Below, in pieces: positions 17,157 to 26,549 of a DNA stretch of 32,000 nt; positions within the stretch are counted from its first letter, which is position 1; the number at the start of each line of letters is the position of its first letter. This stretch comes from Promethearchaeum syntrophicum (GTDB lineage: Archaea; Asgardarchaeota; Lokiarchaeia; Sigyniarchaeales; Promethearchaeaceae). Below the pieces are notes generated by a model. That model did not search any database and was not told the DNA's origin. It worked only from the letters and a program-made list of their open reading frames with translations. The stretch spans positions 2,640,001-2,672,000 of the forward strand of contig NZ_CP042905.2 of NCBI RefSeq assembly GCF_008000775.2, read 5' to 3'. A program made the position numbers and the translations under genes.

Positions 17157-17912
17157 TTAAGATCCGCGCATTATCTTCTTTAGACGTTCTAATTCCTTCA
17201 GCATTTCATCTCTCAAACCACCTAAACCTGGTTCACCATTTCCTGAAGATGCAGCAGGTGCTGCGGCTGCTGGAGGCCCACTTGGTGCAGCGGGTCTTTG
17301 GGCAAATGACGGTGTTTTCACAGCCCCCGGTGGTCCTGATGGGGGTCCAGTGCTACCTGGAGTAGGGGGTAACTTTGGAGGTGGAGGTAGTTTTGAAGGT
17401 GGTCCTTTAGGTGCTCCTTTCGGAGGTGCCGAAGGTGGTCCAGCTTTGGGAGGTCCTGATGGAGGTCCCGCTTTTGGAGGACCTTTGGGAGGTCCTGATG
17501 GAGGACCAGCTCTTGGAGGTCCTGATGGAGGTCCCGCTCTTGGAGGTCCTGATGGAGGGCCTGCTCTTGGAGGTCCTGATGGAGGTGCTGATGTTGAAAC
17601 AGGGGGTAAACTTGTCGGAGTTTGACCAGCTTCTGCAGGAGTTGTAGATAACATATTGAATAATAACGAAGCTGCTTTATCTCGAGCAACGGCTTTCCCC
17701 CCAGAAACTACTTGTGCAGTAGGTTCAACAGTTGCAGATACACCTGTTTTTTTCTTGATTTCCTTTACACGTTTTAGATCTTTCTTTACTTTTACTAGTG
17801 ATTTTTGAAAAGAAGTAATTGATTTACTTGTGGCATCAAGACTATCTGTAAGATCCTCAATACCATCCATTAGAAATTTAATAATTTGAGTTAATTTATC
17901 CTTAACCAACAC
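17157..17912 (-). CDS. Coiled-coil / proline-rich repeat protein (251 aa), function unknown
   Basis: The first codon is GTG at 17912; the next in-frame ATG is at 17870. The N-terminal about 60 aa are heptad-like and helical (LTQIIKFLMDGIEDLTDSLDATSKSITSFQKSLVKVKKDLKRVKEIKKK). The central roughly 115 aa are Pro/Gly-rich with AGPPSGPP(R/K) repeats. The C-terminus is a short amphipathic helix, GGLRDEMLKELERLKKIMRGS. A TATA-like ATATAAAATA (minus sense) lies about 20 nt upstream. Confidence 0.75.
   Translation of the reverse strand: MLVKDKLTQIIKFLMDGIEDLTDSLDATSKSITSFQKSLVKVKKDLKRVKEIKKKTGVSATVEPTAQVVSGGKAVARDKAASLLFNMLSTTPAEAGQTPTSLPPVSTSAPPSGPPRAGPPSGPPRAGPPSGPPRAGPPSGPPKGPPKAGPPSGPPKAGPPSAPPKGAPKGPPSKLPPPPKLPPTPGSTGPPSGPPGAVKTPSFAQRPAAPSGPPAAAAPAASSGNGEPGLGGLRDEMLKELERLKKIMRGS
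17380..17600 (-). repeat. 27-nt in-frame tandem repeat encoding AGPPSGPP(R/K), forming a local GC-rich island
   Basis: The plus-strand unit ggaggtcctgatggaggNccNgctctt starts at 17487, 17514, 17541 and 17568 with an exact 27-nt period. Degenerate copies occur at 17448 and further 5'. The G+C content is visibly far above the flanks. Confidence 0.9.
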
Positions 17913-18056: not shown

Positions 18057-21118
<3,062 letters not shown>

Positions 21119-24032: not shown

Positions 24033-24824
24033 TTATGACTTAGTCAAATAACTCTTAAAATCTTTTTCCCAGCTTAATTCTCCCAAATGTATTTCATCTT
24101 CAATAGCTCTTTTAATCATTTTGGGATCTCCAAGGTAATAATGCCTAATAGCCTTCATATTCTGATCAATCAGATATATTAAAGGAATACCCGTGGGCAT
24201 TTCATAACTTGGAATATCTTTATCTGAAATATTATCTAAATCTTTTACAATAGCCTTTAAAGAATTGTGGTGTGCCACGATCAATACATTTTTACCCGAT
24301 CTAATTTTAGGTATAATTATATTTTTCCAATAAGGAGTCACACGTGTAATAACATTTTTTAAAGATTCTGTTGAGGGTATCAAATCTTCAGATAAGTTAT
24401 GGTAACATTGTTTCATTCTAGGATGTCGTTCATCAAATTTATTTAATGGAGGAGGAATTTCATCATATTTTCGGCGCCAATCTTTCACTCTTTTCTCTCC
24501 ACATAGATAAGACATCTCGATTTTATTTAAACCCTGTAATGCTCCATAATGACGTTCATTTAAATGCCAAGTTCTCTCTACTGGAATCCAACATGAATTT
24601 AATTCATCTAAAACAAGCCAAAGCGTTCTTATTGCCCTTTTTAAAACCGAAGTAAATGCAATATCAAAAAGAAAACCTTCTTGAAGCAAAATTTTACCAG
24701 CAAGGATTGCTTCTTCTTTGCCTTTTTCAGTTAAATCAACATCTGACCAACCAGAGAAATTTTTTGCTTTATTCCAAAGAGATTCTCCATGTCGAATTAA
24801 AACTAATTTGTACATGTTCATCAA
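24033..24824 (-). CDS. 2,3-bisphosphoglycerate-dependent phosphoglycerate mutase family paralog 1 (divergent: AHHNSLK motif, novel C-terminal tail)
   Basis: The ORF-track start at 24824 is TTG. ATGs lie at 24821 and 24815, and MYKLVLIRHGESLWN aligns with the MYKIV starts of the paralogs. Motifs RHGESLWN and NERHYGALQG are present, but VAHHNSLKA replaces AHGNSLRA. The C-terminal tail is IEDEIHLGELSWEKDFKSYLTKS. Confidence 0.85.
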   Translation of the reverse strand: MMNMYKLVLIRHGESLWNKAKNFSGWSDVDLTEKGKEEAILAGKILLQEGFLFDIAFTSVLKRAIRTLWLVLDELNSCWIPVERTWHLNERHYGALQGLNKIEMSYLCGEKRVKDWRRKYDEIPPPLNKFDERHPRMKQCYHNLSEDLIPSTESLKNVITRVTPYWKNIIIPKIRSGKNVLIVAHHNSLKAIVKDLDNISDKDIPSYEMPTGIPLIYLIDQNMKAIRHYYLGDPKMIKRAIEDEIHLGELSWEKDFKSYLTKS

Positions 24825-24857
24825 AGATGTAGGCTTTTAGTTATTTTCTTAAAAAAT

Positions 24858-24877
24858 ATTCCCATTTCTATGGGAAT
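24858..24877. other. Perfect 8-bp stem / 4-nt loop hairpin (ATTCCCAT-ttct-ATGGGAAT) between paralog 2 and paralog 1, followed by a second hairpin CCATC-tattat-GATGG (24881-24896)
   Basis: The inverted repeats were read directly from the sequence. They lie in the 159-nt spacer between two same-strand genes. The role (terminator, processing site or operator) is unknown. Confidence 0.4.
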
Positions 24878-24983
24878 TTGCCATCTATTATGATGGTGAC
24901 CAAGAATAACCAAATAATTCTTTTAAATATAATTAATACAATTTAAGAAAAAAAAATGAATTCCAAATTTGTACATTAGAAAT

Positions 24984-25739
24984 TTAATTTTCTTTAGTAA
25001 ACTTATGTGCATCAACCATTAATTGAATTGCATTCTGGATCTCACTAGGATCACCTAAATAATAAGATCTTATGGTTTTTAATTCATTATTTAATTCATA
25101 GACGCACGGAATCCCTGAAGGAATGTTAATTTGGCTGAGTTTTTCGGGAGAAATGTCATTTAAATCCTTAATTAATGCCCTTAGGCTATTTCCATGGGCA
25201 ATTATCAACACTTTCTCACCTTTAATTATTTCCGGTACAATTTCTTTTAACCAATATGATTTTACTCGTTTTTCAACATCCTTTAATGATTCAATCGAAG
25301 GAATTTCTTCTTTTTTTAAAGTTTGATATTTGCGATGATTAATTGGATGTCTTGGATCAGATTCTGGTATTGGTTGAGCCGGGTTATCCCATCCACGTCG
25401 CCATAAAAAAACTTGTTCTTCACCATATTTTTTTGCCATTTCAACCTTATTTTTACCTTGTAAATCTCCATCAAATCGTTCATTTAATTTCCACGAACGT
25501 TTAATGGGAACCCACATTGCATCCATTTCATCTAAAATTATCCAGGCAGTTTTAATACAACGTTTTAAAACAGAAGTAAAAATAATATCAAAAGTATAAC
25601 CCCTTTTTAAGAAAATTTTAGCAGCATTTTTTGATTCTTTTATTCCTTGCTCTGTTAGATCCACATCGGTCCAACCCGTAAATAAATTCAGGGCATTCCA
25701 TTCACTTTCGCCATGTCTTAGTAATACTATTTTATACAT
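24984..25739 (-). CDS. 2,3-bisphosphoglycerate-dependent phosphoglycerate mutase family paralog 2 (divergent: NERFDGDLQG instead of NERHYGxLQG)
   Basis: ATG start with GGAG 5-6 nt upstream. Motifs RHGESEWN and IAHGNSLRA are present. The His-Tyr of the ERHYG motif is replaced by Phe-Asp. The C-terminal tail is IQLMVDAHKFTKEN. Confidence 0.85.
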   Translation of the reverse strand: MYKIVLLRHGESEWNALNLFTGWTDVDLTEQGIKESKNAAKIFLKRGYTFDIIFTSVLKRCIKTAWIILDEMDAMWVPIKRSWKLNERFDGDLQGKNKVEMAKKYGEEQVFLWRRGWDNPAQPIPESDPRHPINHRKYQTLKKEEIPSIESLKDVEKRVKSYWLKEIVPEIIKGEKVLIIAHGNSLRALIKDLNDISPEKLSQINIPSGIPCVYELNNELKTIRSYYLGDPSEIQNAIQLMVDAHKFTKEN

Positions 25740-25802
25740 TATTTTCTCCAGATCTTTCGGGAATAAGTGAATTTTTGATATTTTAAAAAATGGATTTTAA
25801 GA

Positions 25803-26549
25803 TTAATTTGATTTTCCTTGGTTAGCTACTGCTTTTTCAGCTTTTTTAATAGCATCAGGATCCCCTAGATAATAATGCTTAATCGGTTTTAATTCTTCAT
25901 CCAATTCATAGACTAATGGGAAACCTGTTGGTATATTAAGATGGGGTATTTTTTCATCAGAAATATTATCGATGTGTTTTACAATTGCTCTTAAACTGTT
26001 ACCATGGGCCACAATAAAAACATTCTTACCAGATTTAATAACAGGGACAATTTCATTATTCCAATAAGGCAAAACACGTTCAATAGTAGTTTTTAGGCAT
26101 TCCGATTGTGGAATTTCTTCTTCTTTTAACAAGGAATATTTCCGATCTTTTGTTGACGATCGTTCATCAGATCTTTCCAAAGCAGGAGGAGGAATATCAA
26201 AACTTCTGCGCCAGATAAAAACTTGGTCTTCTCCAAATTCTCTAGCTGTTTTAGATTTGTATAATCCTTGGAGTCCACCATAGTGCCGTTCATTTAATTT
26301 CCACGATCTAAAAACGGGGATCCACATTAAATCCATTTCATCTAAAACAATCCATAAAGTACGAATTGCTCTTTTAAGAACAGAAGTGAAAGCAATATCG
26401 AATTTAAATCCTTGCTCTTTTAAAATTTGTCCTGAATTTAAAGATTCTTCAATACCCTGTTGAGATAAATCAACATCAGTCCAACCCGTAAATCGATTTT
26501 CCTCATTCCATGTGCTATGACCATGACGTAAAAATACAATTTTATACAT
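25803..26549 (-). CDS. gpmA: 2,3-bisphosphoglycerate-dependent phosphoglycerate mutase, the most canonical of the three
   Basis: Motifs [49 protein letters not shown] and VAHGNSLRA are present. The canonical tail is [12 protein letters not shown] (compare E. coli GpmA ...AVANQGKAK, from memory). Confidence 0.9.

Follow-up and report, generated by a model that had tools for sequence, protein, structure and literature searches.

What does Promethearchaeum syntrophicum make with a gene whose product joins a helical N-terminus, a long proline-rich tract and a terminal helix with the sequence LKKI? The gene lies at positions 17157 to 17912 of a stretch of 32,000 nucleotides of contig NZ_CP042905.2 (positions 2,640,001 to 2,672,000; hereafter the window), and a preliminary description of this DNA had compared the encoded protein with regulators of the WASP and VASP type. 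Our analysis led to a different answer. The protein belongs to a family of Asgard archaea, here named FAM, whose members share a C-terminal helix that recurs in several other Asgard proteins. On the basis of sequence comparison and structure prediction, FAM may be a soluble, mostly disordered oligomeric adaptor with flexible arms that present a docking helix. We assign a probability of roughly 0.4 to this reading. The gene, complete as an open reading frame (ORF), and the parts of its product are listed below.

17157..17912 (-): FAM gene, complete ORF of 251 amino acids with a GTG start (ORF list and sequence)
17748..17906 (-): N-terminal heptad coiled coil, residues 3-55 (AlphaFold2, heptad statistics, conserved consensus)
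17646..17696 (-): second short helix (A)AASLLFNMLS(G/T), residues 73-89 (AlphaFold2 and alignment)
17235..17615 (-): disordered Pro/Gly/Ala/Ser tract of (A)GPPSGPP(R/K) units, residues 100-226 (composition, AlphaFold2)
17488..17585 (no strand): 27-nt tandem DNA repeat encoding AGPPSGPPR units (Tandem Repeats Finder, 3.6 copies, 94% match)
17364..17393 (-): KLPPPPKLPP, residues 174-183, the conserved LPPxPKLPP motif inside the tract
17295..17312 (-): PSFAQR, residues 201-206, the conserved PSFAKR motif (consensus PxFAKR in both family alignments)
17160..17225 (-): C-terminal docking-helix motif [LFI]xxLR[DE]EMLxELxRLKxIMRG, residues 230-251 (alignment, AlphaFold2, other architectures)

The C-Terminal Helix Recurs in Other Asgard Proteins

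The C-terminal helix has the sequence LRDEMLKELERLKKIMRGS, the C-terminus of the protein reads ...GLGGLRDEMLKELERLKKIMRGS, and its C-terminal 25-mer is GEPGLGGLRDEMLKELERLKKIMRGS. AlphaFold2 predicted a helix from residue 231 to residue 249 with a predicted local distance difference test (pLDDT) score of 87-95, which continued unbroken through LKKI. In an alignment of 38 sequences the residues L233, E236, M237, L238, E240, L241, L244, K245, M248 and G250 are invariant. The preliminary description had made the significance of the C-terminal motif depend on its conservation in orthologues. It is indeed conserved and stands at the terminus in 82 of the 82 family ORFs of the examined loci, and the helix is near-invariant across lineages that share only 30-45% overall identity. 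Its hydrophobic moment is 0.49 at a mean hydrophobicity of -0.31, and 7% of shuffled sequences reach this moment. The invariant acidic and basic positions together with the modest hydrophobic moment fit protein-protein docking better than membrane binding.

Profile searches revealed the motif in other Asgard architectures, as a single copy or in two to three tandem copies, usually directly after a proline-rich stretch. Two to three copies are found in P0085, P0091 and P0108, together with a zinc-ribbon-like segment (CPxCG...GIPCCxCFKKIF) and a C-terminal longin domain. For this domain of P0085, AlphaFold2 predicted the β-β-α-β-β-β-α-α topology of longin domains (pLDDT 75-86), and its best Foldseek matches were the longin domains of VAMP7, Sec22b, Ykt6, TRAPP and Mon1-Ccz1 (probability 1.0, TM-score to target 0.5-0.69). 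The proteins P0089 and P0115 consist of an N-terminal Ras/Roc small GTPase, PPPPP, one to two copies of the motif and the zinc ribbon just described, without a longin domain. In the multi-pass membrane proteins P0105, P0120, P0122 and P0123, a helical segment is combined with a stretch rich in proline, and the motif stands at the extreme C-terminus. P0121 resembles them, but has a single N-terminal hydrophobic segment. P0055 is a fusion of a transmembrane segment, FAM and TIR. A search with a 45-column profile of the motif returned 13 short fragments only, and a database search with the GTPase-motif protein P0115 found only the protein itself, whose contig of 9.8 kb added nothing further. Judged by its distribution, the C-terminal helix is a portable module. 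In its repeated use across proteins, at times in tandem and mostly behind a proline-rich spacer, this short helix resembles a docking motif that a shared partner would bind.

A Conserved Family of Asgard Archaea

The FAM ORF has a GC content of 47%, compared to a mean of 30.5% for the window, which is due to its Pro, Gly and Ala codons. An identical protein is encoded on the 63.7-kb contig_8 of run DRR199588. Both the protein search, with about 45 homologues, and 117 genomic loci back the reading frame. Since the homologues support only this frame, the ORF is not a chance product. Three ORFs that overlap the repeat (17350-17625 (+), 17411-17647 (+) and 17318-17689 (-)) were rejected as mirror artefacts of it.

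A word-indexed search of 5.8 billion proteins yielded about 45 relatives of 200-270 amino acids. All named ones are from Asgard archaea, labelled Promethearchaeota, Lokiarchaeia, Odin or Hel. With a HMMER profile, no more than 81 proteins reached E ≤ 1e-3 among 1.84 billion representatives. The 117 loci come from a scan in which each species was represented by one genome; its best matches were in a metagenome-assembled genome (MAG) of Promethearchaeum sp. (79%) and in Ca. Lokiarchaeum ossiferum (56%). All of these loci are Asgard apart from a single contig, DATKTW010000083.1 (L029), which is assigned to a bacterial MAG ('Nanopelagicaceae bacterium'). This contig contains the full Asgard gene block described below, and it was probably binned wrongly. 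No relatives were found on viral contigs. There is no Pfam or NCBIfam model for FAM; the searches gave only sub-threshold coiled-coil noise, for example DUF1664 and prefoldin. No description of the family was found in the literature on Asgard WH2, proline-rich, nucleator and VASP-type proteins and on Lokiactin synteny. According to these searches, FAM is a real, conserved, uncharacterised family confined to Asgard archaea.

An Asgard host with actin and profilin had been named as a condition before the origin of the DNA was known, and the host is indeed an Asgard archaeon. The nearest genomes are those of Promethearchaeum and Lokiarchaeum, and the lokiarchaeal lineage is reported to contain actin, actin-related proteins (ARPs), profilins and gelsolins (PMC9834061, PMC9433394). 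For L. ossiferum, one Lokiactin and three ARP-type homologues were reported (PMC9834061).

Three Predicted Helices Connected by Disordered Sequence

The alignment of 38 members showed five conserved elements with variable low-complexity sequence between them, namely the N-terminal helix, AASxLFxLLSG, LPPxPKLPP, PSFAKR and the C-terminal motif. We define FAM by an N-terminal heptad helix, AASxLFxLLSG, a disordered linker and the C-terminal motif, and the window protein has all four. AlphaFold2 was run on this protein as a single chain with the family alignment. The model consists of three helices with disorder between them, and its predicted template modelling score (pTM) is 0.22.

The helical heptad region noted earlier was borne out by heptad register and structure prediction. 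Residues 3-56 follow an unbroken 4-3-4-3 register, in which 75% of the a and d positions are L, I, V, M or F, as against 16% elsewhere, and AlphaFold2 predicted a single helix from residue 3 to residue 55 (pLDDT about 90). The consensus of this helix in the 38-member alignment is RVIxFLKKGLxxLxDxLxxTVKxINDFxKSLxKAxKDLK. It is a probable oligomerisation helix. The second helix was predicted from residue 73 to residue 88 with a pLDDT of about 65, and its residues L84 and L88 are invariant in the 38 sequences.

The proline tract comprises 127 amino acids with 38% Pro, 16% Gly, 14% Ala and 13% Ser. Its AGPPSGPP(R/K) units agree with the preliminary description, which had put the length at about 115 residues and thus too low. 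We counted 15 GPP triplets and five exact [A]GPPS[GA]PP[RK] units. The longest proline run is 4, and the earlier remark that the runs are shorter than five was therefore accurate. AlphaFold2 assigned no secondary structure to the tract (pLDDT 45-57). The stretch with the proline motif reads KLPPPPKLPPTPG; in the family its consensus is LPPAPKLPP, with P177, P182 and P183 conserved at 90% or more. Tract length and repeat number differ among close relatives, and the sequences suggest that the 27-nt repeat undergoes ongoing expansion and contraction. AGPPSGPP units number about 6 in the window, more in L. ossiferum (CP104013.1, L012 5995-6810, in the form AGPPSGPPK) and fewer in P0002. The divergent members P0090, P0095 and P0106 kept both terminal helices, and their linker is K/Q-rich and proline-poor. 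Since the tract can be exchanged in this way, the helices are the constrained parts of the protein and the arm mainly needs length and flexibility.

Search for WH2, WASP and VASP Features

The terminal helix and LKKI had been read as WH2-like. Neither Pfam, nor the spacing, nor the predicted structure agreed with this. The Pfam WH2 model (PF02205) gave no match at E ≤ 10 with 35 full-length members and three isolated C-terminal peptides. In the same run the controls N-WASP and WIP were matched with E values of 7.7e-19 and 5.5e-14, respectively. FAM reads MLKELERLKKI and is 3 residues shorter than the LLxxIxxGxxLKKV spacing; a linker shorter than that of canonical WH2 had already been remarked upon. 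WH2 fails on layout because the helix and LKKI cannot be aligned together to LLxxIxxGxxLKKV. The residues E236, M237, E240, M248 and G250, which are invariant in FAM, are not WH2 features. Consequently, membership in WH2 was rejected on the missing Pfam match, the location of LKKI inside a continuous helix, the wrong spacing and the different invariant residues.

The resemblance to WASP and VASP did not hold either. No EVH1/WH1, GBD or FH2 domain was among the Pfam matches of FAM members, the protein contains no run of five prolines, and it ends with ...KKIMRGS, without an acidic or Trp tail. Membership in Ena/VASP was rejected (no EVH1/WH1, proline runs of at most 4, coiled coil at the N-terminus), as were membership in WASP/WAVE (no acidic-Trp tail of a VCA region, no WH1, GBD or WHD domain in Pfam) and in the formins (no FH2 in Pfam). 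The proposed recruitment of profilin by the proline tract is unsupported: the tract is replaceable, and the profilins of Loki and Odin were reported to be unresponsive to polyproline (PMC8410842). Heimdall and Thor profilins were reported to bind a VASP polyproline peptide only at 0.2-3 mM (PMC8410842). A profilin role for the tract is doubtful.

Genomic Context of the FAM Gene

The ORFs of 91 FAM loci were clustered. An actin-family gene was found within three genes downstream and on the same strand in 69 of these loci, with the order FAM>actin in 19, FAM>PIG-L>actin in 44 and an extra ORF nearby in 6. The upstream flank varies among the loci that keep this arrangement. The actin gene is followed by a gene for a protein of 121-130 amino acids and then, on the opposite strand, by genes for a topoisomerase and a PAS sensor. 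The block of PIG-L deacetylase, ARP-like actin, 121-130-amino-acid protein, topoisomerase and PAS protein occupies positions 8801-11290 of L002, with the actin paralogue at 9658-10773, and is present in about 60 other loci. In this block the PIG-L (GlcNAc-PI-deacetylase-like) gene lies between the FAM and actin genes.

The neighbouring actin is a true actin-fold protein, with a match to PF00022 and PDB matches from 1e-92 to 1e-85. It is 42% identical to human β-actin and about 47% identical to the PDB entry 'HC1 actin'. Since HC1 actin and β-actin are 61% identical, the neighbour is an ARP-like paralogue. The 121-130-amino-acid protein was considered as a profilin and rejected, as it had no PDB sequence match and no Pfam match. 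Weak profile matches to the winged helix-turn-helix (wHTH) protein AspA (E 0.1) were obtained, and the protein is probably a winged-helix protein.

The loci with actin synteny form one coherent clade. Within it the FAM N-termini are 47-98% identical (median 76%), and the topoisomerases are at least 53% identical in all pairs. The MAG labels Odin, Hod, Thor and Hermod (JBHL* loci) are unreliable, given topoisomerases of 53% identity or more. The PIG-L proteins of 'Odin' and 'Hod' MAGs are about 92% identical by eye (e.g., L005 versus L017).

The most widespread neighbour is p88, an unknown protein of 88 amino acids, whose gene lies within 6 kb in 70 of 92 sequences. It has the invariant pattern KIP..DE...F..D..I..FL.LA.Y.H (for example L002 7445-7708 (-)) and no Pfam, NCBIfam or PDB match. 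The gene is divergent and upstream in the big clade, convergent and downstream in the Hel-type loci L003 and L083 and in L008/L009, and 3.4 kb away in L004; near the FAM gene of the window's lineage it is absent. We regard p88 as a candidate functional partner of FAM.

GTPase genes were also found near FAM. In L004, L006 and L007 the FAM gene is divergent to a conserved Arf-like GTPase gene. Downstream of FAM in L006/L007 are Ras/Roc, Gtr1/RagA-like and VWA genes. In L008 and L009 the neighbourhood of FAM includes a DO-GTPase1 gene and a weak longin gene. The regions L006/L007 9258-13978 and L004 5062-7782 are a small-GTPase island of two Lokiarchaeial lineages, in which the Arf-like GTPase is accompanied by a conserved partner of 422-453 amino acids on the divergent strand.

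Proposed Function and Alternative Explanations

As an adaptor, FAM would be made an oligomer by its N-terminal coiled coil, and its chains would each extend a docking helix at the end of a long flexible arm, so that one conserved cytosolic partner would be captured or clustered in several copies. The same partner would be recruited by the membrane proteins and GTPases that carry this helix. The retention of the helices in P0090, P0095 and P0106 despite the changed linker supports such a role. The leading candidate for the partner is, tentatively, an actin-family protein. With this partner, FAM would act like VASP, TARP, VopL or a WASP-type assembly factor, through a new motif instead of WH2. 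Our weights for the different partners are rough and need not add up.

Several observations weigh against this reading. The company of the motif (small GTPase, longin and membrane proteins) speaks for a role in trafficking or with GTPases no less than for one with actin. Nor is the neighbouring actin canonical Lokiactin; this assignment was rejected with 42% identity to β-actin and about 47% to HC1 actin. Synteny across all Asgard phyla was also rejected, since similarity contradicts the MAG labels and the syntenic loci are one clade, with whose members the window protein shares 36-42% identity. As the whole FAM-PIG-L-actin-wHTH-topoisomerase-PAS block is conserved, the adjacency of actin may be inherited gene order, and intergenic gaps of 128-500 bp are no sign of a tight operon. 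No actin gene is located within 6-10 kb of FAM in the window, L011, L012, L003, L083, L004 and L006-L009, and none inside the 32,000 nucleotides of the window. The previously suggested actin connection is supported by a genomic link in one large clade; the window's own lineage has no actin neighbour.

The most serious alternative, though an improbable one, is that the helix binds a small-GTPase, longin or roadblock component and that FAM serves as a tether or scaffold of that system. The motif occurs in fusion with Ras/Roc GTPases in P0089 and P0115 and with the zinc-ribbon/longin family, and the Arf-like, Ras/Roc, Gtr1/RagA-like, DO-GTPase1 and weak longin genes near FAM (L004 and L006 to L009) point the same way, as does the IFT52-GIFT/DUF4350-type protein encoded upstream in the window. 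However, small GTPases are very abundant in Asgard genomes, and for this reason their proximity to FAM is likely due to chance. GTPase and longin genes do not accompany FAM consistently from lineage to lineage, and in the AlphaFold2 model of P0085 the motif helices (pLDDT about 53-63) did not appear confidently docked on the longin domain. A rather improbable variant of the actin proposal goes further. The helix would be an Asgard-specific actin- or ARP-binding module, a functional analogue and not a homologue of WH2 or of the 'C' helix of VCA, and FAM a primitive oligomeric factor promoting nucleation or elongation; the same helix would link the GTPase, longin and membrane proteins to actin. 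Alternatively, the C-terminal helix might pack on the N-terminal coiled coil of FAM itself, resulting in autoinhibition in cis or in head-to-tail networks or condensates in trans, and the other carriers of the motif would recruit FAM. The N- and C-terminal helices are the most conserved parts and are kept together though the linker changes, a pLDDT of 87-95 is unusually high for a free terminal helix, and a long flexible linker suits fly-casting. Nevertheless, self-association is unlikely: the pTM of 0.22 indicates no confident global packing, and the tandem motif also occurs in proteins without a coiled coil, for which binding in trans would still be possible.

Three further explanations are less probable still. 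A true WH2-type G-actin-binding helix behind a polyproline region that recruits profilin, SH3 or EVH1 proteins, as in WASP, WIP or VASP, would account for the order of proline-rich region and amphipathic helix with LKKI, for the modular and sometimes tandem motif, and for the actin-family synteny in one clade, and actin and profilin are reported from the host lineage (PMC9834061, PMC9433394). This is quite unlikely in view of the absent Pfam match at E ≤ 10 next to strong controls, the spacing short by 3 residues with LKKI in a continuous predicted helix, and invariant residues unlike those of WH2. EVH1, WH1, GBD and acidic-Trp elements are likewise missing, proline runs do not exceed 4, Loki and Odin profilins were reported to be insensitive to polyproline (PMC8410842) and the tract is dispensable in divergent members. 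Very unlikely, too, is a ligand of the MIT domain of Vps4 that resembles MIT-interacting motifs (MIM) and has an IST1-like layout of helical N-terminus, MIM2-like LPPxPKLPP linker and MIM1-like C-terminal helix. The MIM1 consensus is (D/E)xxLxxRLxxL(K/R), and the motif half RLKKIMR resembles RLxxL(K/R). There is also an Asgard precedent, since proteins of the endosomal sorting complex ESCRT-III from these archaea were reported to have Leu-rich helices of the MIM1 type at the C-terminus and Pro-rich motifs of the MIM2 type, which the MIT domain of Vps4 recognises (PMC7240154). Against this stand the invariant Glu240 at the position of the MIM1 Arg, on the register of the hydrophobic stripe, the lack of a Snf7/ESCRT-III core in 35 members at E ≤ 10, the lack of ESCRT or Vps4 genes near FAM in about 90 loci, and the tandem copies in GTPase and longin proteins, which are atypical for MIMs. 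Membership in ESCRT-III or MIM1 was rejected on the first two of these points. Finally, FAM might be a disordered linker or structural filler without a specific partner, or its tail an amphipathic membrane binder. Most of the protein is of low complexity and variable length and the terminal helix is amphipathic. This is the least probable explanation, as charged and hydrophobic helix positions are near-invariant at 30-45% overall identity, the motif is reused in unrelated architectures including membrane-spanning proteins, and the hydrophobic moment, reached by 7% of shuffles, is not extreme.

Besides profilins and gelsolins, almost nothing is known about the nucleation, anchoring and regulation of Asgard actin, and the same is true for the connections among Asgard small GTPases, longin and roadblock proteins. 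FAM offers a concrete handle on this interaction network, with a helix that GTPase, longin and membrane proteins also contain and an actin paralogue that adjoins the gene in many genomes. If the partner is an actin or ARP, FAM would be the first candidate assembly factor of a pre-eukaryotic cytoskeleton. If the helix is an actin-binding module, the actin cytoskeleton would have been connected with membranes and GTPase signalling before eukaryotes arose. If the partner is instead a component of the longin or GTPase type, FAM would represent a new system of short motifs in proto-trafficking. In both cases FAM shows that regulation in the eukaryotic style, through short motifs carried by disordered arms, already exists in Asgard archaea.

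Other Genes of the Window

In the lineage of the window, FAM is accompanied by a GIFT/DUF4350-type protein upstream, a membrane protein downstream, purA and an Eco57I/MmeI-type methylase. These neighbours and other genes of the window are as follows.

18057-18980 (-): upstream neighbour, 307 amino acids, 144 bp from FAM on the same strand; matches to DUF4350, ABC_transp_aux (GldG-like), IFT52 GIFT and OST48_N
16263-17051 (-): downstream neighbour, multi-pass membrane protein of 262 amino acids without a Pfam family; same position in L011
13522-16233 (+): Eco57I/MmeI-type N6-adenine methylase, 903 amino acids (type IIG-like restriction-modification)
18904-20370 (+): adenylosuccinate synthetase (purA), 488 amino acids with a GTG start as the longest-ORF call; overlaps the start of the GIFT-domain gene
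24033-26549 (-): three paralogous genes in tandem for histidine phosphatases (His_Phos_1), 248-263 amino acids
1962-9304 (+): two large, probable surface proteins, one of 742 amino acids with seven PKD domains and one of 1610 amino acids

The GIFT-type gene is conserved beside FAM only in the closest Promethearchaeum MAG (L011); the C-terminal approximately 50 residues of its product appear heptad-like, by eye only. The methylase gene stays near FAM in the Lokiarchaeales loci L011, L012, L014 and L045. The 1610-amino-acid probable surface protein contains FG-GAP repeats and prealbumin/CarboxypepD-like domains. The true start of the adenylosuccinate synthetase is probably an internal Met (MESKKTQ...), because residue 59 is the first one covered by the Pfam match and the protein is 439 amino acids long according to the gene caller.

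Comparison with Known Systems

FAM shares with the WH2 proteins WASP, N-WASP, WAVE and WIP a short amphipathic helix and LKK(I/V/T) after a proline-rich region, and in both cases the element is modular and can occur in tandem. The tie of the WH2 proteins to actin has its counterpart in the genomic link of FAM to an actin-family gene in one clade. In contrast to WH2, which consists of a helix, a linker and an extended LKKT, FAM has one continuous predicted helix of 19 residues and is 3 residues shorter. It also lacks a WH2-profile match, WH1/EVH1, GBD and a C/A region ending in Trp, is restricted to Asgard archaea and has other invariant residues. The only WH2-like elements described so far in Asgard archaea are the LKKT/LVDV/LKDV linkers of the 2DGel gelsolins (PMC9433394; bioRxiv 10.1101/2025.11.30.690169). 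Those segments connect the domains of gelsolin-fold proteins, whereas FAM has no gelsolin domain and a different motif.

In its combination of coiled-coil oligomeriser, proline-rich arm and short terminal helix, FAM resembles Ena/VASP, TARP of Chlamydia, VopL/VopF of Vibrio and BimA of Burkholderia. Compared with VASP the parts come in the opposite order, with an N-terminal coiled coil in FAM, and EVH1 and the GP5 profilin sites are absent. VASP, TARP, VopL/VopF and BimA use bona fide WH2 or GAB motifs, while FAM is known here from sequence and prediction. A C-terminal Leu-rich amphipathic helix with a basic end and a Pro-rich linker with an element of the LPPxPxxPP type are also found in the ESCRT-III protein IST1 with its MIM1 and MIM2, and Asgard archaea have a Vps4 with a MIT domain. 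FAM differs from ESCRT-III in having no Snf7 core, no ESCRT gene neighbourhood and a Glu where MIM1 has Arg. It is best described as a variant of the adaptors that combine a coiled coil, a disordered arm and a docking helix, equipped with a new portable motif and distinct from WH2, WASP and VASP.

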